DNA from: Candidatus Methylomirabilales bacterium
GTDB lineage: Bacteria; Methylomirabilota; Methylomirabilia; Methylomirabilales; CSP1-5
Assembly: GCA_046758505.1 (NCBI GenBank)
Contig: JBHIAH010000019.1
Location: forward strand, 1 to 37,258
Reading direction: 5' to 3'
Length of the DNA stretch: 37,258 bases
Of this stretch, positions 1-37,258 are shown piece by piece (the first letter of the stretch is position 1; the number at the start of each line of letters is the position of its first letter). The notes under the pieces were generated by a model, which ran no database searches, was not told the origin of the DNA, and was given only the letters and a program-made list of their open reading frames with translations. The position numbers were made by a program, and so were the translations under genes.

Positions 1-476
1 AGAAAGATCTGAGGATTCAATATCATGGCGCGACAGAGGCCTACCCGCTGCTGCTCTCCCCCACTCAGCTCATGGGGGTACCGTTGGGCATAGGAAAGCG
101 GCAGGTTCACCAGCGTCATGAGTTGCTCGGTCCGCGCCTTGATTCGCTCCGAATCCCATTTGGCGAGCCGCGCGAGGAGGGTGATGTTTGCCTCAACCGT
201 CAAATGCGGAAAGAGGCCAGTCCCTTGGACCGCATACCCGATTCGCAATCGGAGTTCGGGGAGGTGTTGATAGTCGATGGGCTTTCCGAAGACGGATACG
301 TGTCCCTGGCTCGGCCGTACCAACCCGTTGATCAGTTGTAGCAGCGTCGATTTCCCACTCCCGCTCGGGCCGACGACCGCTGTGGTCACGAGCTCTGTGA
401 AGGTAAGATCGATGTCCTGAACGGCTTTTGCGTCGCCGTAGAACTTGCTGATTTTGTCGAGTGCAATCTGTGCCAT
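1..476 (-). CDS. ABC transporter ATP-binding subunit, osmoprotectant/betaine/ergothioneine (OsmV/OpuCA/EgtV-like) type; partial, runs off the left edge
   Basis: Not in the ORF track; manual translation from ATG 476: MAQIALDKISKFYGDAKAVQDIDL..GPSGSGKST (Walker A)..RIGYAVQGTGLFPHLTVEANI..RYPHELSGGEQQRVGLCRAM (ABC signature). IGY.VQ..GLFPHLTV is typical of the QAT family. Confidence 0.9.
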   Translation of the reverse strand, partial: MAQIALDKISKFYGDAKAVQDIDLTFTELVTTAVVGPSGSGKSTLLQLINGLVRPSQGHVSVFGKPIDYQHLPELRLRIGYAVQGTGLFPHLTVEANITLLARLAKWDSERIKARTEQLMTLVNLPLSYAQRYPHELSGGEQQRVGLCRAMILNPQIF

Positions 477-524
477 TCAATGACCGCAAGGCGAACGCCT
501 ACATGCGTGCGCGCAGCACGCCCC

Positions 525-1847
525 TCACCTCAGGCAGGTGCGAAAGCCCGCCATCACATCACGCCGGTCGGGGGTATAGTAGTTCCGCCAGGTATTCCGG
601 ATCATGCGGGAGCGCGTGGCCCAACTGCCGCCACGCAGGACCTTGTGGGTTCCAAACCACGGCTGCGAATACTCCTTGTACGGGTCAGCCACGAAGCCGG
701 GGTACGGTCCAAAGGCAGTGCTCGTCCATTCCCACACGTTGCCGATCATTTGCCGACAACCGAACGGGCTGTCGCCGTCGGGCAGCGCGCCGACGTCGAT
801 GCACCCCCCCGCGTGCCCGTCGAGGTTGGCCCGACTGGGGGATAGAGGTTCATCCCCCCACGGAAAGCTCCGCTTGTGCCCGGACAGTCCCCAGCTGTCG
901 GGCGTAGGCTCGGCGCTCGCCGCCGCTTCCCATTCAGCCTCGGTCGGCAAACGCCGGCCTGCCCATCGGCAGTAGGCCTCGGCCTCGTACCAGTTCACGT
1001 GGATGATGGGGTGGTGCTCCTCTAGTGGCACGATTTCGTCATACCGCCTCCGGCTCCAGCGACCGCCAGCGTCGCGATGCCAATAGACGGGGTGCTCGGC
1101 ACGCTCTCGCTCCCGCCACCGCCACCCCTCTTCGCTCCAGAACTCCCGCCTGCGATAGCCCGTGTCTTCCACGAACGCCACAAACTCGCCGTTGGTCACC
1201 GCCGCGCGCGCAATACGAAAGGGCTGCAGCGTGACGGGATGGGCCCACTTTTCATTGTCGAACACGAAAGGGAGATCCGGCGTCGCGCCGAGGAGGAATG
1301 TCCCTCCGGGAATCTCCGCATCGCCAACCAGCGGCCCGTCCCCCGCCTGCCCGGCGGGGACCTCTTCGGAAAGAGCGGTGAGTTGCGGGGGCGGGTATCC
1401 GAGCGTCTGCCGGGTGTAGGTGAACGCCTCATCGTGCATGTCCTCGTGGAACACAGCCAGGCGGTGAAAGTAGATCTCCTCCCCGTTCAGCTCGATCGAG
1501 CCGAGCCGCTGGACGATCCGGTTCATCACCTGCTGCATGTAAGCCAAGGTCTCTTCTCTCGACGGAAGCGGGAGGTCCCACCGGGTGTCGTGCGGTATCG
1601 CCATGGAGTCGTACAGCGCATCGGCATCCGCACGTATGGGCTCCGCCTTGCCGCAATGCCGCAAGACCCACTTTTCTTGGAACCACGCCACATGTCCGAT
1701 CTCCCACAGGAGCGGGTTCACGATGGCGAGGCGGGGCCCCATCATTTGCTCGTCGGTCAGGTCAGCGATCAGGGCGAGGGTCCGTGCACGGCCATCGATC
1801 AGCACGTGAGCCAACTCGGCAGCCGAAAGCGTGGCATGCTCATCCAT
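525..1847 (-). CDS. senA: SenA-like non-heme iron selenoxide/sulfoxide synthase (EgtB superfamily, DinB + FGE-sulfatase domains)
   Basis: NPLLWEIGHVAWFQEKW, LYDS..PHDTRWDLPLP, metal triad GH..FHEDMHDEA, RRLPTEAEWE, GNVWEW, and C-terminal YSQPWF..RNYYTPDRRD..GFRTC, which resemble SenA more than the EYNGKFM-type EgtB (from recall of family motifs). Confidence 0.8.
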   Translation of the reverse strand: MDEHATLSAAELAHVLIDGRARTLALIADLTDEQMMGPRLAIVNPLLWEIGHVAWFQEKWVLRHCGKAEPIRADADALYDSMAIPHDTRWDLPLPSREETLAYMQQVMNRIVQRLGSIELNGEEIYFHRLAVFHEDMHDEAFTYTRQTLGYPPPQLTALSEEVPAGQAGDGPLVGDAEIPGGTFLLGATPDLPFVFDNEKWAHPVTLQPFRIARAAVTNGEFVAFVEDTGYRRREFWSEEGWRWRERERAEHPVYWHRDAGGRWSRRRYDEIVPLEEHHPIIHVNWYEAEAYCRWAGRRLPTEAEWEAAASAEPTPDSWGLSGHKRSFPWGDEPLSPSRANLDGHAGGCIDVGALPDGDSPFGCRQMIGNVWEWTSTAFGPYPGFVADPYKEYSQPWFGTHKVLRGGSWATRSRMIRNTWRNYYTPDRRDVMAGFRTCLR

Positions 1848-1905
1848 GAGTGACCCCCACTGCGTGACAAACGCCGGGATGTTTTGGTCGGACGACGGAG
1901 TGCAT

Positions 1906-3015
1906 CTACCCCCACACGGCCTCGGCCGTTTCCACGATCACGCGCAACTTGCGCTTCTCTTCTTCCACCGAGATGCGGTTGCCGATGATCGAGCTGGCGA
2001 ACCCACACTGGGGACCAAGGGCGAGCCGCTCTAACGGCATGAACCGGCTGGCCTCCCGGATGCGCCCGGTCAACTCCTCTTGGGTCTCGAGCCGCGCGTT
2101 CTTGGTGGAGACCAGCCCCAGGACGACGATCTTATCGTCAGGCACATCCCGCAGTGGCGCGAAGGACCCGGACCGGGCGTCGTCGTATTCGAGCAACAGC
2201 CGCTGGGCGCGGATTCCCCGGAAGAGACTTTTGGCGATCGATTCGTACCCCCCTTCGGACAGCCACCGGCTGCCCTGGTTGCCCCGTCAGAGGTGGAAGC
2301 CAAAGGTCACTCCTGGAAAGTCCCCCATCACCGCATTGTCCATCTCCAGGCCCCGTTTCAGCCACTGCTCGATGCTCCACCCCTGCGCCTCATAGAAGGC
2401 CCGGGTTTTCGGGTCGATCAGCAGAGCATAATGGGGCGCATCGAGCTGGATGTATGCCGCCCCCAGGCGAACCAACTCGCTCACCTCGCTGACCAGGATG
2501 TCCGTGACATCCGCCAGAAAATCATCCAGGGTGGGATAAGCGTTCGTGGAGTGCTCAGGCGACCAGAAGTTCACCCACAGGCTGGGACTCGGCAACGTGA
2601 TCTTGGGGATCCGCGTGGTGCGGGCTCGCAGATACGTAAACTCCTCCGCCGAGAGGTGGCGCCGGCGGCTGAGCCTGCCCACGACTCCCACAGCGGCCGG
2701 CCGCTCCAGATGCCAATCCCCCACCTCTGCATCGCCAGACCAGTCACCCCACAGAAAGGCCTCCAGGGGACACGCACCGAATCCGTCAACCGCCGCCGTC
2801 ATCTGGCTCTGAAACGACTGGCGGCGCATCTCCCCGTCGGTGACCACCTCGAGACCTACCTCCTCCTGGAGTGCCACCGCCTCATCGACGGCGCGGTCCT
2901 CGATTCCCTTGAAGGCCGCCTGCCGGATCGTCGCGGCGGCAAGATCCTGCTGGGCCTTCAACAGCCAGTGAGGTCGCAACAGGCTTCCGACGACATCGGC
3001 GCGGATTGCCTTCAT
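1906..3015 (-). CDS. Cobalamin-independent methionine synthase II (MetE C-terminal/core) family zinc alkyltransferase, 369 aa, with predicted selenocysteine at codon 243
   Basis: ORFs 2287..3267 and 1906..2196 share a frame (381 nt offset). Start MKAIRADVVGSLLRP at 3015 follows a purine-rich RBS. Motifs TDGEMRR, YIQLDAP, FHL-TGA-RGN, LLEYDD, LGLVSTK and PQCGFAS are present. The only interruption is TGA at 2287-2289, at the Zn-ligand Cys position. Confidence 0.88.
2257..2289 (-). promoter_or_regulatory. In-frame UGA plus bacterial SECIS element
   Basis: Minus strand: UGA-CGGGGCAACCA-GGGCAGCC-GGU-GGCUGUCC. An 8-bp stem (one G-U pair) starts 11 nt after the UGA with apical loop GGU, the same geometry as the E. 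coli fdhF SECIS. Confidence 0.82.
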
Positions 3016-3085
3016 GCCCCTTTCCGCCTCTCCGCCTGGAGAGTAGTCGGCCCGAAACATCGTGCCAGACCCCGAGCGAACGATT

Positions 3086-4093
3086 CTACTGCGCGACGGC
3101 GGAGAGCGAAAGGGCAAAGAGGTGATCCGTGTCCGTATCCCACCGGAGCAGGTTGAGGCCGGCCTCTCTAAGCATCGCCTCGACCATCGCGCGCGTATAT
3201 TTGCAGCTAATCTCTGTCCGGATCGATTCCCCCCGCACAAAGTGTACCGCGAGATCGATCGCGTCAATCGCCACGTGATGCGACTCGCGGGCGACCAGAT
3301 GCATCTCGATTCGTGACTCGTCGCGGTTGTAAAAGGCGAGATGGTCGAACCGATCCGGAGCGAAATCGGCCTCCAGGTGTCGATTGATAACGGAAAGGAT
3401 GTTCCGGTTGAAGGCGGCGGTCACGCCCGCGGCATCATTGTACGCCCCCTCCAGGAGACCCACATCCTTCACCAGGTCCGTACCCAGCAAGAATCGGTCC
3501 TCCGGGGCGAGCTGGCGGACGACGTTCCGGAGAAAGCCGGTGGCCTCATCGGGCGTCAGGTTTCCAATCGTTCCCCCTAAAAAGATCACCAATCGAGGTC
3601 CCCCTCCCTGGAGGATCTCCACCGGTTGCTCGAAGTCGCCAATCAGGCCGTGGACGCGCAATCCCGGGTAAACCTCACCGAGCGCGTGGGCCGTCTCCCG
3701 AAGCAGGTCTTCGCTGACATCGACTGGCACATAGCAATCGAGCAGCGCGGCACGCGCCATCGCGTTGAGGAGGATGCGGGTCTTGCGCGAACTGCCCGAC
3801 CCGAATTCCACCAGGGTCGTGGGCCGACACGATGCGATCACGTCATCGGCGATCTCTGTGAGCACAGCACGCTCGGTGCGCGTCGGGTAGTACTCCGGAA
3901 GCTCGCAGATCTGCTCGAAGAGGGCTGCGCCCCGGGCGTCGTAAAAGTACTTGGGGGGCAATTCCTTTGGGGTCTTGGTCAGGCCACAGCGGACATCCTC
4001 GGCCAGCCGGGCAAACGGGTTTCCGCCCCCCGAATGGAGACCGATATGAATCCTAGACTCATGGTCCGATGGCACCATCGACGTCGGCCCCAC
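3086..4093 (-). CDS. egtD: L-histidine N-alpha-trimethyltransferase (hercynine synthase)
   Basis: KELPPKYFYD..LFEQICELPEYYPTRTE, VEFGSGSSRKT, FLGGTIGNL, AYNDAAGVTAAFNRN, IRTEISCKY. Start uncertain (GTG 4093 or ATG 4078). Confidence 0.95.
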   Translation of the reverse strand: MGPTSMVPSDHESRIHIGLHSGGGNPFARLAEDVRCGLTKTPKELPPKYFYDARGAALFEQICELPEYYPTRTERAVLTEIADDVIASCRPTTLVEFGSGSSRKTRILLNAMARAALLDCYVPVDVSEDLLRETAHALGEVYPGLRVHGLIGDFEQPVEILQGGGPRLVIFLGGTIGNLTPDEATGFLRNVVRQLAPEDRFLLGTDLVKDVGLLEGAYNDAAGVTAAFNRNILSVINRHLEADFAPDRFDHLAFYNRDESRIEMHLVARESHHVAIDAIDLAVHFVRGESIRTEISCKYTRAMVEAMLREAGLNLLRWDTDTDHLFALSLSAVAQ

Positions 4094-4116
4094 AACCGCT
4101 GACCACCCTCATCTTA

Positions 4117-4938
4117 TTATTTCGCCCCGAGTTGCTCCTGTGCGGCTCGCGCAAAACGCTCCAGACTGGTCAGGTGGCTTGGCAACTCTTCGCTCAGCGA
4201 CGCGTCTTCCGTACCGGGGTCAAGGACGAGCCGATTGCGGATCTCGATGAGCTGGCCCAGTTCGCGAGCCAGACCCGGCTCGAGCTGACCAACCTCTGCC
4301 AGGACCTCGGGAATATCCGCGAAGTCTCTGGGAGGCCGGAGTTTCATGGCAGTGATGAGCTCAAGACAGACCGCAAGCGCACATGTAATGGCGGACTGAA
4401 GAAAATAGCGGCCGGCTCCCTCTTGAATCGGATCCGCTGCGGCCGCCTTCTCGAAGCCTCGCAGTTGACCGATGCAGCGTTCCATCTGCCCAAGCCTTGC
4501 TGTCATCTCGTCCCTGCGGATCGTCACGGCGTCCTCCATCGGATGCAGCTCCCACCCGAGCATCTGCCTGAGATCGAAGTACCGCCCCCAGACACCTCTC
4601 TCAAAGGCGATCCGCGCCTCTTCGTCACGGCTGTAGACCACCCGGCCCGCCGTGAGGACAGCACCACGAAATGTCAATGGTGTCTCGTTCAGAATCCGCA
4701 CCCCGGCGCCGGGAACCGCCAGCATCTCTTCCAGTAAAGTCTCCAGGCGAATCTCCACATGGAAGTAACTCCCGGGTGGAAGGTTTGGGTCCATAAAGGC
4801 AGCGATCTGCACATCACGAAGGGCGGGAAAATCCTCGGGCATGGCGATGCCGTAGGCGAACAGGGTCGGGGTCTCGCCGAGTAAGTTCTCTGCCTCCGCC
4901 TGGAGCCGCTCGAAGAGTTGAGATCGCTCACAGTTCAT
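4117..4938 (-). CDS. Fused MNT (MntA-like) nucleotidyltransferase + DUF86/HEPN (HepT-like) protein, catalytic motifs degenerate
   Basis: N-half LFAYG..RDVQIAAF..VRILNETPLTF..G.VVYSRDEEARIAFE..YFD matches the MntA fold. C-half RYFLQSAI..PPRDFADI..LAEVG..IRNRLV matches DUF86. Confidence 0.75.
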   Translation of the reverse strand: MNCERSQLFERLQAEAENLLGETPTLFAYGIAMPEDFPALRDVQIAAFMDPNLPPGSYFHVEIRLETLLEEMLAVPGAGVRILNETPLTFRGAVLTAGRVVYSRDEEARIAFERGVWGRYFDLRQMLGWELHPMEDAVTIRRDEMTARLGQMERCIGQLRGFEKAAAADPIQEGAGRYFLQSAITCALAVCLELITAMKLRPPRDFADIPEVLAEVGQLEPGLARELGQLIEIRNRLVLDPGTEDASLSEELPSHLTSLERFARAAQEQLGAK

Positions 4939-5078
4939 GGTTCAACGTGGAGGGGAGAGAGTTGAGAGCCCAGAGCTGAGCGTTCACCGTCCACGGTTCG
5001 CAGTCATTTCACCGTTCCTGGTTCACGGATTGGCAACTCCGCCTTGACTGTCAACCACGAACTGTGAACCATGAACCG
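4931..5078. repeat. Degenerate heptamer repeat array forming an inverted pair (GTTCAC-type then GTGAAC-type)
   Basis: cgttcac cgtccac ggttcgc..ggttcac followed by tgtcaac cacgaac tgtgaac catgaac. Confidence 0.65.
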
Positions 5079-5101
5079 ATCAATAGGTCTGCGGTCCGCC
5101 T

Positions 5102-5755
5102 TCAGCGCAGTCGCCGCCGGAGCTCCGGGAAATCATCGATCAACACATCGGGTCCCGCTGCCCGAAGATCCGCGACCGGCCGCAGGCCGTACGTCACCCC
5201 CACGCTATAGAGCCCCGCCCGCTTTGCCATCTCGACATCAACCGGACTATCCCCCACCATCGCCGCCAGTCTACTCTCCACGCCGGTGGCGCTGAGAACC
5301 CGCCGGGCAGGCTCCGGATGCGGTTTTCGCTCGACCGTGCTGTCGCCGCCCAACACCACGTCGAAGTGGCCTGAGATGGCAAGCCCCTCGAGGATGCGGA
5401 CCGTGAACTCAAGCGGCTTGTTGGTCACGATCGCCTTTCGCTTTCCCTGGAAATGCTCGAGGGTTTCCCGAACCCCCTGATAGAGGCAGGTCGCATCCAG
5501 CAGGTGCACCGCGTAATATTCCCGGAAGAACCCGACCCCGGCCTCCAGGACCCCCAGATCATCGGGACCGAGTGCCCGGCTGAGGAGAGTCTGCACCCCG
5601 TCACCGACGTACCGGCAGACCTCCTCTACAGAGAGCGGGGCCCGTCCAAGTTTCTCCAGGGCGTGATTAACCGCTGCCGTGAGGTCGGCCCGGGTATCGG
5701 CGAGCGTCCCGTCCAGATCGAAGACGAGGAGGTCCACATACTTGGCTCCCCTCAC
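5102..5755 (-). CDS. gph: HAD-family hydrolase, phosphoglycolate phosphatase-like
   Basis: FDLDGTL motif I, VTNK motif II, RKPHPEP, MVGDS..D motif IV; GTGA overlap with the upstream stop. Confidence 0.85.
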   Translation of the reverse strand: MRGAKYVDLLVFDLDGTLADTRADLTAAVNHALEKLGRAPLSVEEVCRYVGDGVQTLLSRALGPDDLGVLEAGVGFFREYYAVHLLDATCLYQGVRETLEHFQGKRKAIVTNKPLEFTVRILEGLAISGHFDVVLGGDSTVERKPHPEPARRVLSATGVESRLAAMVGDSPVDVEMAKRAGLYSVGVTYGLRPVADLRAAGPDVLIDDFPELRRRLR

Positions 5756-13087: not shown

Positions 13088-14035
13088 GTGGCCAGGTACG
13101 CCGCCATCGACGTGGGGACCAATACCGTCCGGCTCCTCGTGGCAGACGCGGAAGACTCCACGACCTATCGCGCCGTCTTCCAGGCGCAGCACATCACCCG
13201 GCTCGGCGAGCGGATCGAGGAGACCGGCATGCTGAGTGAAGCGGCGATGGCGCGGACCCTCCAGGTGCTTCAGCGCTTTGCCCAACAGGCCAGGGCGCTG
13301 CGGGCTGAGGAGGTGGCGGCCGTCGCCACCAGTGCGGCCCGGGAAGCCGCGAATCAGGGGGCGTTCCTCGCCCGGGCGCGGAGCGAGGCGGGCGTCGAGC
13401 TCCGGGTCATCTCCGGAGAATTCGAGGCGACCCTGACCGCCCTTGGCGTGTCCCACGCCCTGGGCCCGGTGGGCACCCCCATACTGATTCTCGACATCGG
13501 CGGAGGGAGCACCGAGTTTACCCGGCTTGACCAGGGCAAGATGGGCGGGTACATAAGCCTTCCCATGGGGGTGGTGAAGCTGACCGAGGCCCACCTCAAT
13601 GGCGATCCGCCCTCCGGAGAAGAACTAGAAGCCGCGGCCACCTCGATCCGCGAGAGCCTCGGGCAGGTGCCGGCCTCTCTCAGGCACCCGCCGGGGGGCA
13701 TCCTGGTGGGGACCGCGGGCACCCCCACCACCCTGGCCGCGATCGACCTTGGTCTTGCGACGTACGATGCAAAGCGAGTCACCGGCCACCGCCTGTCGCG
13801 AGACCGGATCCGGGAGCTGCTGGACTACCTCTGCTCCCTCCCCCTGGCCGAGCGCCGCCAGATCGTCGGCCTCGAGTCGGCCCGAGCGGACGTGATCCTC
13901 GCAGGCACCCTGCTGACCCGTGAGACCATGGCGCTCTTCGACTTTGACGAACTCACGGTGAGCGACGGGGGCCTCCGCGAAGGCCTCCTCCTCCACCATC
14001 TTGCCCACCACCACCCCAAATCGCCCCCTGATTGA
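13088..14035 (+). CDS. ppx: Ppx/GppA family exopolyphosphatase (short form)
   Basis: AAIDVGTNTVRLLVA, ITRLGE, ATSAAREAAN, ISGEFEA, DIGGGSTE, RADVI, GLREG. Confidence 0.92.
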   Translation: MARYAAIDVGTNTVRLLVADAEDSTTYRAVFQAQHITRLGERIEETGMLSEAAMARTLQVLQRFAQQARALRAEEVAAVATSAAREAANQGAFLARARSEAGVELRVISGEFEATLTALGVSHALGPVGTPILILDIGGGSTEFTRLDQGKMGGYISLPMGVVKLTEAHLNGDPPSGEELEAAATSIRESLGQVPASLRHPPGGILVGTAGTPTTLAAIDLGLATYDAKRVTGHRLSRDRIRELLDYLCSLPLAERRQIVGLESARADVILAGTLLTRETMALFDFDELTVSDGGLREGLLLHHLAHHHPKSPPD

Positions 14036-14293
14036 GCCCGGGAGGCGAGACGAAGAGGCCGAACGGGAAGCTCTAGCACCGGCCACTGTTCCCCTATGCC
14101 GTGGGGGCGGTCATCTGGATCATCCTCCCGGGCCTGCTCTTCCTGTACTTCTGGTTCAGTGCGCCGGATGAACTCAAGCACGATACGCACAGCAGCTTGG
14201 CTCCAAAGGGCCCACTAATCACCGATAACGTTCCCCGTATGCGGCGGTGAGCCGGCGTCCGCAGGATCTAGAGGGGGGTGACAAGAGGACTGT

Positions 14294-14590
14294 GTGATTG
14301 CAAGACCCGACCCCCAACCGGACCCCGAGATAGATGAAGGCCTCGAGAACGCTGGTAGGCGGATTGGCCAGCTTGAGCGATTCCTCGTGACAACGCTCAT
14401 GGTATTGGACCAGTACAGCGCGATTGCGTTTGTCTTTGCTGCAAAATCCATCGCTCGCTTCAAAAAGATCGAGGAGTCGCCCGTCTTTGCAGAGTATTAT
14501 CTTGCCGGGACATCGGCTAGTGTCTCCTTTGCCTTGTTGATAGGCCTCTGTATCAAAGGCGGATTCGCGCTGCTTGGGTGGAGCCATTGA
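14294..14590 (+). CDS. Small hypothetical membrane protein (possibly a remnant)
   Basis: 98 aa, lower GC; GRRIGQLERFLV..FVFAAKSIARF..FAEYYLAGT resembles the C-terminus of DUF3307-like membrane proteins (recall, unverified). Confidence 0.45.
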   Translation: MIARPDPQPDPEIDEGLENAGRRIGQLERFLVTTLMVLDQYSAIAFVFAAKSIARFKKIEESPVFAEYYLAGTSASVSFALLIGLCIKGGFALLGWSH

Positions 14591-14693
14591 TATCAAATGC
14601 AGGGAGCATGTGTTATTCCTGGACGAACACAAAGCGCTGCGGGGAGTAGTGATGCCGAAAGAGACTCCCTGCCCACGAGGATGCTAAAAGCGG

Positions 14694-15098
14694 TCAAGCC
14701 TTAGGTAGGTCACCAGGAAGTCCAGTCCTGGCGTATCGGAAGAGGTTCGCTTTATCTCCCAAGCCTTGAAGAGCAGAGGCAGTACACCGGTCTTGTTTCC
14801 ACGGGCCGCGGACGTTCGGGCTGTCCAAGCATGTCGTAGCATGAATAGTGGGAGGAAGGCCTGCAACCTGAAACGAGGGCGAGAAACTCGGTAACGGCAA
14901 GGGGGGGCTACGGTTCCGTTCAACGATATCACTGCCGGCTCAGGTGCATTGGCGCCACTGACATAGCCATGCCGCTTTCGAAACTCACGCTCTTGGGAAC
15001 TCTCTAGTTCCTCCGCTGCTACATGCGTGTTGACCCCTGTAACACTCAGCAAGCAGGGGCGCCCAGGCACCCAAAGAACAACCCGTTCACCTGCTTCA
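14694..15098 (-). pseudogene. Frameshifted C-terminal remnant of a ThiF/E1-like enzyme
   Basis: RV..PGRPCL..EEL..RHGYVSG..PEPAVISLNGTVA, then a second frame with QGLGDKANLFRY; there is no N-terminal GxGxxG region and the 5' side abuts a tandem repeat. Confidence 0.55.
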
Positions 15099-15155
15099 GC
15101 GGGTGGGGTCAGGCATTTGGCGGGTGGGGTCATGGCGGGTGGGGTCAGGCATTTG
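15099..15155. repeat. Three copies of GCGGGTGGGGTCA (copies 1 and 3 extended by GGCATTTG)
   Basis: Copies start at 15099, 15120 and 15135. Confidence 0.85.
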
Positions 15156-15392
15156 TATATTTATATCGGCTTTGGGACCGGTTCCAGCATCGTTTAGTAC
15201 CGTGTCTTGCAATCCCACCCCGCCCTTCCTCCGGGGTTGCTCATCCTTGGGACGATCGTAGTTTGGGCTTGACAGGAGCTGTGCGTGCTGGGGTACAAGA
15301 GAGGCGACTCCAGGCGACCCTTCGGGTTGCCGCGTGGCTGACTCTGGGACGAGGACTCAGCTCTCAACACTCAACTCTCAGCAGGTAGTTGA

Positions 15393-15435
15393 GATGGAAC
15401 CGGGGTAGGGATAACCCCTAGCCCACCTCCGGCAC
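15393..15435 (+). promoter_or_regulatory. Conserved leader hairpin, copy 1 (candidate cis-regulatory RNA)
   Basis: GATGGAACCGGGGTAGGGATAA-cccta-GCCCACCTCCGGCAC is highly similar to 26409-26452 on the minus strand; a TTGACA lies at 15269. Confidence 0.6.
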
Positions 15436-15461
15436 GATTGACGGCGTTTCGGAAGTTTCTG

Positions 15462-15506
15462 ATGCCCTCTCGGGCGAACCTTGGCCCGAGAGGGCGTATT
15501 GCTTTT
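15462..15506 (+). terminator. Intrinsic terminator-like hairpin in the 5' leader of the MBL-rhodanese gene
   Basis: 14-bp stem ATGCCCTCTCGGGC / GCCCGAGAGGGCGT, 8-nt loop, tail ATTGCTTTT. Confidence 0.7.
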
Positions 15507-15574
15507 GACCGTTGGTCGGGAAATGCACCTCAGTTGCAGGCAGCGCGTCCTCATCGAAGTAGGGAGATTGAACG

Positions 15575-16702
15575 ATGTATTTTAAGCAAATCTTGGACGA
15601 ACGCTGTGGTTGCGCATCCTATCTGATAGCCTCTCGCCAATCGCATGAGGCGGCGATCGTCGATCCCTCAATCGAGACGCAACCATATGAAGAATTGCTC
15701 CGGGAGCGCAACTTTCGACTGCGCTATGCGCTCGACACGCACGTGCACGCAGACCACGTGTCAGGCGCACGCAAGCTTCGAACCGCCCACGCGGCCGAGC
15801 TGTGTCTGTATGAAGAGGCCCAGGTGGTCTACCCCTTCCGTCCCCTCAAAGATGGCGAAGAGCTCGCGCTAGGGCAGCTACGCCTGCGCGTGTTGCACAC
15901 ACCCGGACATCGCCAAGAGCTGATCTCGATCCTGATCATTAACCCACCCCGCAGCCCGGAGCCCTCGATGGTGCTGACGGGCGATTCGCTACTGGTCGGC
16001 GACGTCGGCCGCCCGGACTTTGGAGGCGGCGACGCCGCTGTTCAGTATGACAGCCTGACGCGCTTGCTACGGCTGCCGGACTGGGTGGCGGTTTTTCCCG
16101 GTCACTTTGAGGGGCCTTGCGGCAAAGGGATGTGTGGCCGACCCAACACAACCATCGGCTTCGAGCGACTGTACAACCCATTGACCCGCCTGGATCGCGA
16201 GACCTTTGTCTCTACCCTCGTACACAGCCTCGCCGCGCGGCCATTGAACATGACCGCCATCGAGGCGACCAACCGGGGCGTGGGCGACATGCCGTGGGCT
16301 ATGCTAGCCACCGCCCCCGCAGTCAGTGAGATCGACATCAATACACTGGAAATGCGTCCGCCAAGGGCAGTCGTCTTGGATGTTCGCGAACCGCAGGAGT
16401 ACGCGCACGGGCATGTCCCTGGTGCGGTCAATATTCCCCAAGCAGACCTAGCCTCGCGGCTGGACGAGGTGCCGCGGGATTGGCCCGTGATGATCATTTG
16501 CCAGTCAGGGATGCGCTCATTGCGGGCGGCGCAGTACCTGACGCAGATGAACATCGCTCAGGTCGCGAACGTGAAAGGTGGTAGCACAGCGTGGCGCAAG
16601 GCAGGCAAAGCGGTCACCGTCGGCGACACGAGCGTGGAAGAGCCTCGTGTCACCGAAACGGAATGGATGCACGCCGGCGCCCGCAGCAGCCTCCAGACTT
16701 AG
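15575..16702 (+). CDS. MBL-fold persulfide dioxygenase (ETHE1-like) fused to a rhodanese domain
   Basis: DTHVHADHVSG, HTPGH, TGDSLLVGDVGRPD, FPGH, TTIGFER.YN; rhodanese LDVREP.EY..GHVPGA..ICQSGMRS; RBS GGGAG. Confidence 0.9.
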   Translation: MYFKQILDERCGCASYLIASRQSHEAAIVDPSIETQPYEELLRERNFRLRYALDTHVHADHVSGARKLRTAHAAELCLYEEAQVVYPFRPLKDGEELALGQLRLRVLHTPGHRQELISILIINPPRSPEPSMVLTGDSLLVGDVGRPDFGGGDAAVQYDSLTRLLRLPDWVAVFPGHFEGPCGKGMCGRPNTTIGFERLYNPLTRLDRETFVSTLVHSLAARPLNMTAIEATNRGVGDMPWAMLATAPAVSEIDINTLEMRPPRAVVLDVREPQEYAHGHVPGAVNIPQADLASRLDEVPRDWPVMIICQSGMRSLRAAQYLTQMNIAQVANVKGGSTAWRKAGKAVTVGDTSVEEPRVTETEWMHAGARSSLQT

Positions 16703-23762: not shown

Positions 23763-25130
23763 CTAATGGTTTTTCCTCCTGCGATACACTCGGTCCTTAA
23801 TCACACTGACAATCCACACCACGCTCTGCCTGAGGCTCGCGTCCCCCGGCCGCACGGTGGCCTCGATCTTCTCCACCTCTTCGCCGATGGCCGCCTCGAG
23901 GAACGACGATTTCTCGATCGCCAGGACCTGAGACGGATACACACTCCGATGGCCCGTCATCACAAAGCTCACCACACACGCGACGGCGGCGTACGGGGCG
24001 ATCTTTGCGCCGAAATACTCCACAGCCATAATACTTGCCGCAATGGGGGTATTGGCCGCCCCCGCCAGAAGACCCACCAACCCGATGGCCGCAAAGGTGC
24101 CTGGGTCGACATTGAACACTGTCGCAAAGAGCGTTCCAGCCGTCGCCCCGACAAAGAATATCGGCGTCACAATCCCGCCACTCCCCCCGAAGTTGAGCGT
24201 CAGGCTGGTAAAAATGACCTTCAGAATAAAGGCATACCACACCACCCTTTCGCCCCCCAGGGACGCCTCGATCGTTCCCAGCCCGAGCCCGAGATACTGC
24301 GTGGAAAACAACAAGGTTAAACCCGCCAGCAGGCCCCCGCCGATGATTCCCTTCCACGGGCTCCATATGCGTCCCATGTCCGCGAGCTTTTTCCCGACCT
24401 TTAAGACCTCAATGAGAAAACATGAGCACAAGCCAAAGAAAATACCTGCCAGGACCACTTTTATGAAGAAGGAGTGGCTGAAGACCGGCACAAACGCGAT
24501 CGGGTGGTAAAAATATGTAATCCCCAATGCGGACGACACCTGATAGCTGATCAGCCCCGCAACGAAAGAAGGGAGAAGGACGTCGTAGACGATGCTGCCC
24601 ACAAAGAGTACTTCAACGCCAAAGATCGCGCCGGCGATGGGTGTGCCGAACACCGAAGCAAAGCCGGCGCTGATCCCACACACAACCACCTTCTTGCGAT
24701 CGCGGTCATTAAATCGGAGCAGATCGGCGACCAGGGATGCCAGCCCCCCACCTATTTGCGCACACGGTCCCTCTTTGCCTACCGAGCCGCCCAGCGCAAG
24801 CGTGATAATCGTCGTCAGAAACTTCACCGGCACGACCAGGGGCTTTATCTTCCCGGACCGCTTGTGCACCGCTTCAATCACCTTCTCCGTCCCGTGCCCT
24901 TCGGCGTCCGGAGCTAAATATTGCGTGAGGAGGATACTGGCGAACAAGGCGACGGGCAGCAACACGAAATAGTAGGGAACCTGACTACCAAGTCTGATGC
25001 TCCAGTTCAAGACTTTCAAAAACACTGCTGTGGACAAACCCACAATGAGACCGATCACTGTGGCCAGAATAAACCAACGAAGAATACTGATGAAAATGAC
25101 CGATTCTTCGGTGAATACTCGTGTCTTCAT
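23763..25130 (-). CDS. CLC/EriC-family chloride channel or H+/anion antiporter
   Basis: GHGTE, GGSVGKEGP, AGFASVFGTPIAGAIFGVE, GGIVTP, ANTPIA, SVY.SQ. Confidence 0.93.
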   Translation of the reverse strand: MKTRVFTEESVIFISILRWFILATVIGLIVGLSTAVFLKVLNWSIRLGSQVPYYFVLLPVALFASILLTQYLAPDAEGHGTEKVIEAVHKRSGKIKPLVVPVKFLTTIITLALGGSVGKEGPCAQIGGGLASLVADLLRFNDRDRKKVVVCGISAGFASVFGTPIAGAIFGVEVLFVGSIVYDVLLPSFVAGLISYQVSSALGITYFYHPIAFVPVFSHSFFIKVVLAGIFFGLCSCFLIEVLKVGKKLADMGRIWSPWKGIIGGGLLAGLTLLFSTQYLGLGLGTIEASLGGERVVWYAFILKVIFTSLTLNFGGSGGIVTPIFFVGATAGTLFATVFNVDPGTFAAIGLVGLLAGAANTPIAASIMAVEYFGAKIAPYAAVACVVSFVMTGHRSVYPSQVLAIEKSSFLEAAIGEEVEKIEATVRPGDASLRQSVVWIVSVIKDRVYRRRKNH

Positions 25131-34542: not shown

Positions 34543-35072
34543 AGCCGTACAGCAATAAAGCGAGTGCAGACAGTACAGAGGGTGCTTTTCCTCTCCCGAT
34601 CCTCCGCATGCCAGGAAAGAAACATGAGCCCCGCGGAAATCAGTCAGTTACCCCTCCAAAGGTGTCCGGTACCTTTAGTTTCCATCCAACCTCTTTAAAT
34701 TATTGGCTTTATTTGTAAGGCCCGGGTCTACGACGCGCGGGCTAGACCTTTGAGCCCAGAGGCCTATCCCGCTCGCGTCGCATCAGGCCCTCGCCGCCTT
34801 GCCTTGATCCCCCAGCCCGAGCTCTCCCGTTTCCGCCGAGCCCCGACGTCCCCCCTGGGGGGTTGTGCTCCCCTTCAGGTGTCCGTCAAATCGGGCGTAG
34901 CACCGGCTGACCCCATTCTTCGGCGGCGAGCCACCGTAGCCGCCGCGCTACTCAGGGAGGAGTGGCATGAGAAGGCGGAGGAGCACGGCCACCGCTATGA
35001 GGGCCAGCGCGAGGTAGGCACTTGTCCGGCGGACATGTGGGAACCTCCGATTCAACAAGAAGACCTGTGCGT

Positions 35073-36621
35073 AATTGGGGGACATAATACGTATTTTTCA
35101 GGAGGTCGTTTCGATGAAATCAATATTATGTCCCCTGAATCAACGGCCCTACAACCCACATTTCCTCCAGACGATCTAACTTTGCTCCTTGATCTCTTCA
35201 GCGAGTGTCCCAAACACTTCCTTGACAAAACAGGTTGACGCTAAGACGGTTCCTAGCTTCGGAAATGGAGCAAGAGAGGGATACTTGTATGTTAGCGCTT
35301 CGCAGAGTATTCCGCCTAGCCCAGCAAAGGCTATTTCTGACAGAGTCTTGTCAATTGGCTGGCCATGGCGCGCGAGGTGTATGAACCCCCTTGTCCCTGC
35401 GACTAGGTAATCCGCTGCTCTCACGAGAGGTTCGACCTTCGAGGAGGCAAACCGAAGATCTTCAACCTTCTCAAACCCTGCCTTAAACTTACGCCCGTCC
35501 TTCATCTGGATTACTGCCGGATTCCCTTTCCTCTGCTTCAACAAATTGAAAATGTACTCATAAGCGGGCTCGAATACAGGTGTTTCGTCGTGGATGATGA
35601 CACACACGCCCGGGACATCGAGTTCGACATGTTGAATGGCGCCGACGACCAAGGCGAAGTTGAGCGTATCCATCGCGCGAAGAACGCCCTGACCCGCCTG
35701 CGCCTCCGACAGCATCTCTGCCTCGATTTCAGCAAGTACTCCTTCGATTCTTTCGGCCAAGTCTGGACGACCCCTGTGGAGGAACTCATCACGCCAGTCC
35801 AGGACGTTCTGCCGCATCAACTGGCCGTCCTTTGCTCGGTACGCCCGGGCGAACGCATCGATAAGGTGACTGCCAGCATCATAGAAGACTTGTGCCTGCT
35901 CCTGCCTGAGTTCGGGGTCCCAGGTTTCCTCATTGGGTATTCTGGGATTGTATGCAGGGTCAAAGAACGTGTCCACGATCCTGCAACATGCAGAATACCG
36001 CTTCTCCGCCACATACATGAACGGAATGCAGCCCGCCTGCCCCACGGCAGAACAGACTGCACGAATAAACTGCTTGCCGTGCGTATGCTTAATTAGCTGT
36101 GAACCCTTCACTTCACTCGTTGAAAATCCGTATTTTCGCTCCAAATTTCCCACGCGTACTTTGGCATCCCATCGCTTCTCGTTAGACACCCACCAGCCCC
36201 CTTCGATAAAGACCGGCTGTGCTGGGTCGAGCAGATTGGGTCCTGTATTTCCCGTCTCATCCAAAAATAGAGTGCCCTTATAAGTCATTGCCGACCCAGT
36301 GGTTTGCTGTGCCGGGCTAACTAGAATTAGACAGAGCTGTCTAGTTCCCCGAACACTGCGGTTTCCTGCAGCCTATCTTCTTGACTCCGAATCGAAATAG
36401 CATCGCATCCTTTCGAATCCAAAGAGAAGTAAGTATTATGTCCCCCGAATTCCCCCCCGAAAGGCCTACGATAACCTGCTTGAGTCACTTCTCACTCATC
36501 TGATGATGCAAAACGTCTAAGCTCACGAATTGCTGGTGACAGTATATGTCATTACACGTCTCATACCGCCGCCCTATCTGTTGGCGGCAAACCCAAATTC
36601 GTATATCCTGTCCCCGGAAAT
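35073..36621. repeat. Dispersed (G)TATTATGTCCCC(C/T)GAAT-type repeats
   Basis: Copies at 35073-35090 (minus), 35124-35140 (+), 36433-36451 (+) and, degenerate, 36609-36621 (+). Confidence 0.7.
35176..36288 (-). CDS. DUF3800-family protein (RNase H-like acidic motifs)
   Basis: LFLDETG.TG.NLLD..QPVF, EVKG, IIHDE, SK....VRAADYL. Confidence 0.8.
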   Translation of the reverse strand: MTYKGTLFLDETGNTGPNLLDPAQPVFIEGGWWVSNEKRWDAKVRVGNLERKYGFSTSEVKGSQLIKHTHGKQFIRAVCSAVGQAGCIPFMYVAEKRYSACCRIVDTFFDPAYNPRIPNEETWDPELRQEQAQVFYDAGSHLIDAFARAYRAKDGQLMRQNVLDWRDEFLHRGRPDLAERIEGVLAEIEAEMLSEAQAGQGVLRAMDTLNFALVVGAIQHVELDVPGVCVIIHDETPVFEPAYEYIFNLLKQRKGNPAVIQMKDGRKFKAGFEKVEDLRFASSKVEPLVRAADYLVAGTRGFIHLARHGQPIDKTLSEIAFAGLGGILCEALTYKYPSLAPFPKLGTVLASTCFVKEVFGTLAEEIKEQS

Positions 36622-36643
36622 GCCCCAAGATGGAAGATGACAT

Positions 36644-37258
36644 CTATCCGGAGGATTGGGATGAAGCCGAACCACTGATTTCCTTCAGCTTGGCCACCAC
36701 ATCTTCCTTGATCTCTTGAAGCTCCTTTTGCGCTACGAAGCCCCCAATTGCGTTGACCTCTTCCAGGATTTGAAGAAAAAACAGGATGCTTGCGGTTAAT
36801 ACTGGCCTCGCCCACTTGTCTCCAGGGAGGAGCTTAAGTAGAAATCCGTTCTTCGGATCCCAGAACATGTGGTCGAATAAATCGGTGGCATGGACCGCCC
36901 GGGATCCGAGGCGAAATGGAAGGTCGTAGGCTGATTGCAGACTAACTTCACGCATTGCTTCCTCGATCCTGCGACCGTGCCAGGCCGCAGCTTCGTACCG
37001 TTTCTTAAACTCTTCCTCCGGCATACGGGCTTTCGCCTCGTCGACCCGCTGCCGAACCAGAGTCTTCTCTTCGTCGGAAAACATCCCCTTGAGGCCAGGA
37101 TTCTGTTCCGTCGCGTTCATCAACTTCTGGTCTTGGATGATTATAAAGTCGACGTACTGCCGTGCCCGGCCCTCACGATCATCCATCCCGAGGTATTTGA
37201 TATGCGCGAGGATCTCGGAGAGCGTCCGAAGAAGGGCCTGGGCATCTTCACATAGACC
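36644..37258 (-). CDS. DUF5677/HEPN-like protein; partial, starts beyond the right edge
   Basis: The frame stays open to the edge: GLCEDAQALLRTLSE..KYL, then W....I, Y...FR..S..VH. Confidence 0.65.
   Translation of the reverse strand, partial: GLCEDAQALLRTLSEILAHIKYLGMDDREGRARQYVDFIIIQDQKLMNATEQNPGLKGMFSDEEKTLVRQRVDEAKARMPEEEFKKRYEAAAWHGRRIEEAMREVSLQSAYDLPFRLGSRAVHATDLFDHMFWDPKNGFLLKLLPGDKWARPVLTASILFFLQILEEVNAIGGFVAQKELQEIKEDVVAKLKEISGSASSQSSG

Follow-up and report, generated by a model that had tools for sequence, protein, structure and literature searches.

A SenA/EgtD operon of a Methylomirabilota bacterium with a MetE-like gene that very probably contains a selenocysteine codon

To our knowledge, selenoneine biosynthesis is known only as the succession of SenC, SenB and SenA, the last of which joins hercynine to the selenosugar SeGlcNAc through a C-Se bond. 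The closest described cluster is senABC of Variovorax paradoxus, and the available text of the preprint on sen clusters names only egtD, co-localised in a subset of them, and a selenate transporter as further genes (bioRxiv 10.1101/2022.04.13.486033). The other systems used here for comparison are the ovoselenol synthase OvsA (PDB 8U41/8UX5; PMC11030361), the EgtUV transporter of Streptococcus pneumoniae (bioRxiv 10.1101/2022.05.02.490363), the core methionine synthases MesA-MesD (PMC7857596), and the short B12-independent methionine synthase family (1YPX, YxjG/YxjH, PRK06520/PRK06233). The locus described below lies in a stretch of 37,258 nucleotides, called the window, which is contig JBHIAH010000019.1 of assembly GCA_046758505.1 from a Candidatus Methylomirabilales bacterium (G000:C19 in our numbering). 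The bacterium belongs to the Methylomirabilota (NC10), and the locus is an operon of the SenA/EgtD or selenoneine type that carries, between egtD and the senA-like gene, a MetE-like gene whose in-frame TGA is very probably a selenocysteine (Sec) codon.

Four co-oriented minus-strand genes, separated by gaps of 70, 58 and 48 nt, stand at the start of the window, where the features in question are as follows:

3086..4093, minus strand: egtD, histidine N-alpha-trimethyltransferase with hercynine as its product; start at GTG 4093 or ATG 4078
1906..3015, minus strand: MetE-like gene, 369 aa, ATG at 3015, in-frame TGA at 2287-2289
2287..2289, minus strand: the in-frame TGA, codon 243, at the position of the MetE zinc ligand Cys643
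2257..2275, minus strand: hairpin resembling a selenocysteine insertion sequence, with an 8-bp stem GGGCAGCC/GGCUGUCC and loop GGU, starting 11 nt after the UGA
525..1847, minus strand: senA-like gene of the non-haem-iron selenoxide/sulfoxide synthase class, with DinB_2 and FGE-sulfatase domains
3..476, minus strand: 5' part (first 158 residues) of a QAT-family ATP-binding cassette (ABC) ATPase gene; PF00005 102.5 bits, proV subfamily as top match

An earlier note on this DNA, made from the letters alone, had listed the same four genes with the same gaps; coordinates and translations agree with it, and the gene identities that it proposed are borne out by family profile scores. EgtD passes the equivalog cut-off (TIGR03438 368.5 bits against 290.9; PF10017 367.7 bits), and a genome-wide profile search shows the window copy to be the only egtD of the genome.

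The Sec reading of the TGA was also put forward in that note, and it is sustained because homologues have Cys at this position, a hairpin is conserved 3' of the codon, and the genome encodes tRNA-Sec, selA, selB and selD. Cys stands at the U243 position in all 13 aligned homologues. At the nucleotide level, 38 of 41 genome loci could be analysed (L044, L047 and L048, being frameshifted or incomplete, were left out): the column reads TGA in 16 of these and TGC or TGT in 22, so that with the window 17 of 39 rows are TGA. Among 68 metagenome loci, 16 have TGA and 38 have Cys, and 14 were left unresolved by the search pattern; the genome and metagenome counts are not independent, since some contigs are duplicates (e.g., L089 and L013, both of 16,669 bases). 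A bacterial selenoprotein gene is expected to have a stem-loop shortly downstream of its UGA, with G or U in the apical loop. Here the loop is GGU or GUU in 17 of 17 TGA forms against three of 22 Cys forms (Fisher 2.6e-8, a figure that overstates the contrast since the rows are related). The stem is encoded by the conserved SRWL peptide and is hence found in the Cys forms too, leaving only the choice of Arg codon to discriminate, and the fold energy of the 68-nt stretch is unremarkable by itself (z = -0.48). Under translation table 11 the frame is interrupted, as it would be if the TGA were a nonsense mutation and the gene a pseudogene. However, the same TGA is shared by 16 other genome loci and by 16 loci from metagenomes, at 64-81% identity and with the frames intact on both sides, and such decay is thus hardly credible. 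Sec forms are hidden in the protein database because gene callers stop at TGA. The only selD of the genome (G000:C6:7795-8721, L005) itself has an in-frame TGA, as in Sec-type SelD, and is followed by a MetX-like esterase gene.

The MetE-like protein has a single Meth_synt_2 domain (PF01717 48.2 bits, cut-off 21), which is its sole domain, and the N-terminal folate-binding Meth_synt_1 domain was not found in its 369 residues. Its best solved relative is Listeria 1YPX (164 bits), far ahead of MesD 3RPD (42 bits) and full-length MetE (26 bits). An AF2 model (predicted local distance difference test 81, predicted template-modelling score 0.85) has MetE C-terminal domains, 1YPX and 3RPD as its top Foldseek matches. 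A Trp-rich insert at residues ~87-106 has no counterpart in 1YPX. At E <= 0.001 the protein database gives at least 8000 matches, the best 120 of which are full-length proteins of 361-407 aa that are 68-77% identical to it. In E. coli MetE, zinc is held by H641, C643, E665 and C726, and homocysteine is bound by S433, E484 and D599 (PMC7857596). In the window protein, H241, U243, E276 and C337 align with ligand-site residues of 3RPD and with motifs of 1YPX, while S11, E62 and D192 align with ligand-site residues of MesD 3RPD; the assignment of the first set to zinc and of the second to homocysteine is the mapping of Price et al. (PMC7857596). All of these except U243 are invariant in 14 aligned sequences, and position 243 is Sec in the window and Cys in the others, where GFHL-U-RGNQGSRWL is replaced by an invariant GFHL-C-RGNQGSRWL. 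By homology, Sec would occupy the first Cys ligand position (Cys643) of the predicted zinc site; the residues that would receive a free alpha-amino acid are all in place.

The window protein therefore shares with the short B12-independent methionine synthases its single-domain fold, its length, the positions of the zinc tetrad and the homocysteine residues. It differs from the 1YPX and YxjG/YxjH types in having Sec for the first Cys ligand and in scoring below all curated cut-offs, and its gene is part of a thio/selenoimidazole operon rather than of a methionine regulon. MesA-MesD likewise lack the folate-binding N-terminal domain, and their zinc and homocysteine residues align with those of the window protein, but the scores to MesD 3RPD and to full-length MetE, given above, are low. 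Neither the window nor those syntenic loci that were checked showed a corrinoid protein or MttB, MesX not being among the proteins searched for. Elsewhere in the genome (G000:C5:43252-45158), two adjoining Meth_synt_2-matching open reading frames (ORFs) of 342 and 353 aa resemble a MetE split in two, which probably serves as the housekeeping methionine synthase. With this pair, to which the window protein is no more than 22% identical, the MetE-like gene is not the sole candidate methionine synthase.

The synthase encoded next to the MetE-like gene reaches 539.9 bits with the SenA model NF041186 (cut-off 420) and 360 bits with the EgtB model TIGR03440, a score equal to the cut-off of that model. 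It scores as SenA and not as an ordinary EgtB, the grouping that the earlier note had named as evidence against its own reading. Among solved structures its best relative is OvsA (349.5 bits), followed by EgtB-I (270.7 bits) and SenA 8K5I (253.9 bits, in two stretches). Read by eye from alignments to OvsA and EgtB, its active-site residues are N44, E49, H52, H86, R89, H134, M137, H138, Y390, Y393, N422, Y423, Y424 and R428. The published composite motif of SenA is xNEH--HRHxHYYN(F/Y)(F/Y)R, and that of OvsA ends in ...YMQAYR (PMC11030361); the residues of the window synthase fit the former and not the latter. Y393, N422 and Y423, which select between histidine and hercynine, are thus of the SenA type, where OvsA has M, Q and A, and an egtD gene is adjacent. 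The residues N63, E68 and R120 of SenA have been tied to selenosugar binding (PMC11237966), and their equivalents are retained. By its residues the enzyme looks like a hercynine-using, selenosugar-type SenA, yet its lineage lacks SenB, which is contradictory. Compared with Variovorax paradoxus senABC, the window operon has a SenA above the NCBIfam cut-off with the composite motif and, as in a subset of the published clusters, a co-localised egtD; it differs in lacking senB and senC, in a genome without SenB, and in adding a Sec MetE-like gene and a QAT ABC importer. A second SenA-class fragment opens contig C45 of the same assembly (G000:C45:3-527, L004): it has 174 aa, is 70% identical to the window synthase, and matches the SenA model over its last 118 positions with 187.9 bits. 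Its N-terminal part was not found anywhere in the assembly, and the genome may contain a second, unassembled SenA cluster; the phylum-wide SenB result given below is independent of that. Next to the fragment (L004:1072-3714) is an 880-aa molybdoenzyme resembling ArrA/thiosulfate reductase.

The absence of SenB extends well beyond this operon. The TIGR04348 model, confirmed from its description as SenB, has a cut-off of 300 bits, and its best match in the genome, which is 96.8% complete, reaches 88 bits. No SenB or SelD is encoded in the window, since all genome-wide matches to TIGR04348 and TIGR00476 lie on other contigs, in line with the earlier remark that senB and selD were missing beside senA. 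Among 201 Methylomirabilota genomes sampled, SenA is above its cut-off in 63 (G000 and the unpublished genomes G057 and G162 included), while SenB is above its own in two, G025 and G115, which belong to one genus and have SenB adjacent to SenA (at most 10 candidates were scored per genome). SenB was therefore not found in 61 of the 63 SenA-bearing genomes of the sample. One of them is the closed genome G019, where SenA stands by itself and egtD is missing from the 10 kb around it. A similar picture is given by the 11 other genomes that bear the cluster with the MetE-like gene, where SenB is above cut-off in two (those of loci L033 and L037).

These counts bear directly on a role that the earlier note had offered for the selenoenzyme, namely as a source of an alternative selenol donor for SenA; the selenol (e.g., selenohomocysteine) would be coupled to hercynine in place of the SenB product. 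Such a substitution would suit the lack of SenB in this genome and in nine of the 11 other cluster-bearing ones, as well as the fact that the MetE-like protein is the only other enzyme of the operon. Against this, close MetE-like homologues (at least 64% identity) lie within 5 kb of SenA in only 11 of the 63 SenA genomes, nine as Sec forms (G000, G020, G027, G029, G044, G070, G084, G131 and G073) and two as Cys forms (G056 and G066); 85 of the 201 genomes have any MetE-like match at all, a number that includes the unpublished genomes G068 and G111 with distant forms only. G054 and the closed G019 have SenA with neither gene, the MetE-like gene also occurs together with senB (L033 and L037), and the window SenA keeps the residues assigned to selenosugar binding. 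Because so many SenA genomes lack both SenB and the MetE-like gene, the latter cannot be an obligatory SenB replacement. In this phylum a SenA operon normally comes without SenB, and most such operons are also without the MetE-like gene; substitution for SenB is therefore very unlikely. In a broader version, Methylomirabilota would make selenoneine or a related selenium compound without the SenB selenosugar, from another selenium donor, with the Sec MetE-like protein as a selenium-specific partner that handles a seleno-amino acid (e.g., selenohomocysteine) or methylates the product; we regard this as a speculative reading, with perhaps a minor chance of being right. The undescribed selenometabolite pathway of the earlier note is not shown by this analysis.

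A GT4 glycosyltransferase (G000:C16:31912-33933; L055 and L069) was considered as a possible SenB substitute. It gives the 88-bit match to the SenB model, against 330 bits with the GPMC family-4 model, and is 28% identical to true SenB. Its gene adjoins that of a "selenium metabolism-associated LysR" regulator (311 bits, above cut-off) and lies ~10 kb from tRNA-Sec. Similar SenB-model matches of 82-107 bits are present in six of the nine SenB-less cluster genomes and in neither of the two SenB-bearing ones. It is at most a candidate for that role. A PhnE-type permease and a below-cut-off match (131 against 190 bits) to the Rcas_1661 (seleno)lipoprotein model are encoded nearby.

The linkage of the MetE-like gene to egtD and senA, on which the earlier proposal depended, is found again in other genomes. 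The gene is accompanied by egtD and a SenA 50-81% identical to that of the window in 11 of the 41 genome loci (L011-L015, L019, L023, L024, L025, L033 and L037), ten of which carry TGA, L033 being the Cys form. Among the 68 metagenome loci, egtD is directly upstream in eight, all of them TGA forms, and SenA comes next where the contig reaches. With X for the MetE-like gene, the order in most linked loci is egtD-X-senA-ABC; it is egtD-X-senA-senB in a Nitrospinota locus (L033; SenB 403 bits), senA-senB-X-egtD in a Planctomycetota one (L037; SenB 372 bits), and senA-egtD-ABC-permease-substrate-binding protein (SBP)-X in G056. The first two share the arrangement egtD-X-senA, so that three architectures are distinguished. 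The MetE-like gene directly adjoins egtD in all linked loci except L024 and L084. SelD was not found in the flanks of the 41 genome or the 68 metagenome loci. A tree built quickly from 39 rows places every one of the 12 linked rows (the 11 loci and the window) in one 18-row subclade, weakly supported (SH-aLRT 82); 16 of its 18 members are Sec forms, against one of 21 outside it. The gene is facultative in the cluster, since G054, a genome of the same genus, has egtD, senA 109 nt later, ABC and SBP-permease genes with nothing between egtD and senA (L083). Twelve of the 13 other genomes of the window's genus have SenA; in six of them a Sec gene is adjacent, and the other six give no match at E <= 1e-80.

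This distribution might simply mean that there is no functional link, and that a mobile egtD-senA cassette has picked up an alternative methionine synthase with a housekeeping function. The patchy occurrence of the gene among members of one genus would agree with that, and so would the heterogeneous neighbourhoods of unlinked homologues (103 ORFs from 30 loci, and a further 26 ORFs). However, the linkage turns up again in four phyla or more and with three different orders of the genes, which simple hitch-hiking would not lead one to expect, and passive carriage is improbable. Two contigs call for separate comment: L011, assigned to a "Gammaproteobacteria" bin, does not differ from the Methylomirabilis contig L012 over the MetE-like gene and is probably mis-binned, and L033 has a PRK06370-type FAD disulfide oxidoreductase gene near its senA-senB cluster (L033:12121-13518, minus strand), a family for which published figures give co-occurrence with 4% of these synthases.

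The identities of the genes, the Sec/Cys homology, the conserved hairpin, the synteny and the lack of SenB are results of the analysis; the substrate of the MetE-like enzyme, its methyl donor, its role and the product of the operon are inferred. EgtD would trimethylate histidine to hercynine with three S-adenosylmethionine (SAM), giving three S-adenosylhomocysteine, hence three homocysteine, per hercynine. The SenA-class iron enzyme would then add selenium (or sulfur) at the imidazole C2, and the QAT-family ABC importer would take up a carboxylate betaine. The MetE-like zinc enzyme may bind homocysteine as MetE and MesD do and methylate it, restoring the methionine/SAM pool that EgtD draws on, and production of the Sec form would be limited to times of selenium supply. 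Homocysteine recycling, one of the roles listed in the earlier note, fits best because the residues for homocysteine and zinc are retained and because egtD is nearly always the adjoining gene. The closest named relatives of the protein are of the YxjG/YxjH type, and in Lactobacillus paracasei yxjH is under methionine control and shares a transcript with luxS, a gene of SAM recycling (PMC6004538), a link that favours a SAM-recycling reading. We hold homocysteine recycling tentatively, at somewhat less than an even chance.

Several observations weigh against it. All seven NCBIfam methionine-synthase models that match the MetE-like protein score it below cut-off, the best being NF005085 with 239 bits against 313, and we know of no activity for this 369-aa family. 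If the gene merely supplied SAM for EgtD, it would be expected with the far commoner EgtB-type clusters as well; the association is almost never with these, and an EgtB-like neighbour was seen only twice. In L045 a 34%-identical synthase is encoded 3.5 kb from the MetE-like gene, and in L097 (5127-7549) an FGE-sulfatase-domain synthase-like ORF, 32% identical to the window SenA, lies 160 nt past a Cys-type MetE-like gene, a rare non-SenA linkage. About half of the Sec forms are in unrelated neighbourhoods. A published tabulation of genes that accompany these synthases, with 31 families, has no MetE-like entry (PMC13674229). Sec usually marks redox catalysis (PMC13188914), not a zinc ligand. 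Finally, no source of methyl groups is apparent, the genome (96.8% complete) having no MetH activation domain and no MttB.

Two loci elsewhere touch on the donor: an MttB-family gene (L022:5409-6962) is directly upstream of a Sec-type MetE-like gene in Anaerolineales, and a RACo corrinoid activator (L018:8149-9732) is beside a Cys-type one. These hint that some members of the family take methyl groups from corrinoid proteins. For the window enzyme a corrinoid-borne donor was set aside, this genome being without MttB and without the MetH activation domain.

The same zinc/Sec site could instead, as the earlier note also proposed, act on the product of the pathway, methylating (or demethylating) selenoneine, ergothioneine or an intermediate, to give for instance Se-methylselenoneine. 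Enzymes of the MetE superfamily alkylate varied thiols (PMC10418091), and the MetE-like gene behaves as tailoring genes do: it is facultative in the cluster, it is linked to SenA-class selenium-type clusters and not to EgtB clusters, and it is embedded in senB-bearing ones. On the other hand there is no variation at S11, E62 and D192, the residues for the free amino and carboxylate groups of homocysteine, for which a substrate with a trimethylammonium group would have no use; identity between linked and unlinked homologues is moreover 70-77%, which argues for one shared substrate. Tailoring is thus unlikely, although it deserves to be kept in view. The usual association of Sec with redox catalysis (PMC13188914) could also be taken at face value: U243 and C337 would be neighbours in the metal site, judging by homology, and a selenenylsulfide couple between them might reduce the hercynyl selenoxide or selenenic acid coming from SenA, or oxidised selenoneine. 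The SenA product does need reduction, for which dithiothreitol was used in vitro (bioRxiv 10.1101/2022.04.13.486033). But the whole H/U/E/C zinc tetrad is kept together with the homocysteine site, and most relatives are Cys forms in unrelated contexts, so a redox role has little probability. Homocysteine recycling remains the reading that we prefer, with the caution stated above.

The transporter genes extend past the end of the window. The window begins at a contig end, off which the ATPase gene runs, and its positions 1-55 are identical to the last 55 bases of contig C1 (158,676 bases). Beyond this overlap, C1 contains the remainder of the ATPase gene, then a 500-aa OpuAC and permease fusion, and then an NYN-domain gene; the permease and substrate-binding functions that were to be sought to the left of the window are thus present as one fused protein. 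The operon probably continues on C1, and a join is supported because the same five-gene order is contiguous in L012, L014, L015, L023 and L025, where the syntenic ABC ATPase copies are full-length. The best solved match of the C1 binding domain is EgtUC (174.8 bits), with A. fulgidus ProX at 159.1 bits. Residue roles were taken from the EgtU work (bioRxiv 10.1101/2022.05.02.490363), with a numbering offset of 229 derived from K242, G244 and F293. The aromatic cage (N339, Y341, Y419 and Y443) and the carboxylate binders (K242, T296 and R379) are conserved, as in EgtUV. In contrast, the F293/Y337 switch of EgtU reads Y/F, which is the ProX configuration, the G244 position is Phe, and the domain order is reversed, with the binding domain N-terminal. 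On these residues the transporter is a predicted carboxylate-betaine importer, for which ergothioneine specificity is unsupported. The earlier assignment to a betaine-type ABC system accordingly stands, and the transporter is no more than EgtU-like, since the discriminating residues (F293/Y337 and G244) do not agree.

Other observations concern the surroundings of the operon. Upstream of egtD, and separated from it by 23 nt, ends a 273-aa ORF with no NCBIfam match (4117-4938, minus strand). Genomes of the same genus have it in synteny (59% identity in G054), and the synteny of this ORF and of the housekeeping genes beyond it is confined to the phylum. Consensus scans of the minus strand of positions 1-5200 gave no promoter-like and no terminator-like site, which is weak evidence, and an Rfam scan of the window at gathering thresholds gave 0 matches. 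The G+C content, usually 0.61-0.70, dips to 0.51-0.59 at 14001-16000, 24001-25000 and 35001-37000. One metatranscriptome run (X1), which held 6% of the sampled words, yielded four short contigs from a relative that are 90-96% alike to the window; one of them, of 380 nt, spans the senA/ABC junction (340-719), contigs from an RNA library being no proof of transcription and stretches without coverage being uninformative.

A literature search found no paper linking selenoneine/SenA, ergothioneine/EgtD or selenoproteins with (cobalamin-independent) methionine synthase, and in the ovoselenol paper (PMC11030361) no passage on SenA without senB was found. The main texts of two selenoprotein inventories (PMC9312934 from 2022 and PMC13188914 from 2026) do not mention methionine synthase, MetE or homocysteine, nor does that of the latter mention PF01717 or COG0620. 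These negatives apply to main texts; clusters of this kind may be shown in supplementary figures and tables to the papers on sen, ovoselenol and thiohistidines. A groundwater survey of metagenome-assembled genomes (Deng et al.), cited in PMC13188914 for candidate new selenoproteins and for a Methylomirabilota genome with 63 selenoproteins, may list the MetE-like family.

Within that scope, the MetE-like protein represents a further family of selenoproteins, with Sec at a predicted zinc-ligand position, that does not appear in the main texts of the two inventories. Because gene callers cut the gene at its TGA, it would easily escape surveys of the neighbourhoods of such clusters. This locus further contributes the phylum-wide lack of SenB, the variable occurrence of the MetE-like gene inside one genus, the three cluster architectures and a transporter that is not of the EgtU type. 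The variation within one genus amounts to a natural experiment on the contribution of the gene. Methylomirabilota keep SenA-class enzymes almost without SenB, which implies that the donor or the product differs from that of the textbook pathway, and for a SenB-less SenA this question of donor or product is testable with a three-gene expression construct.

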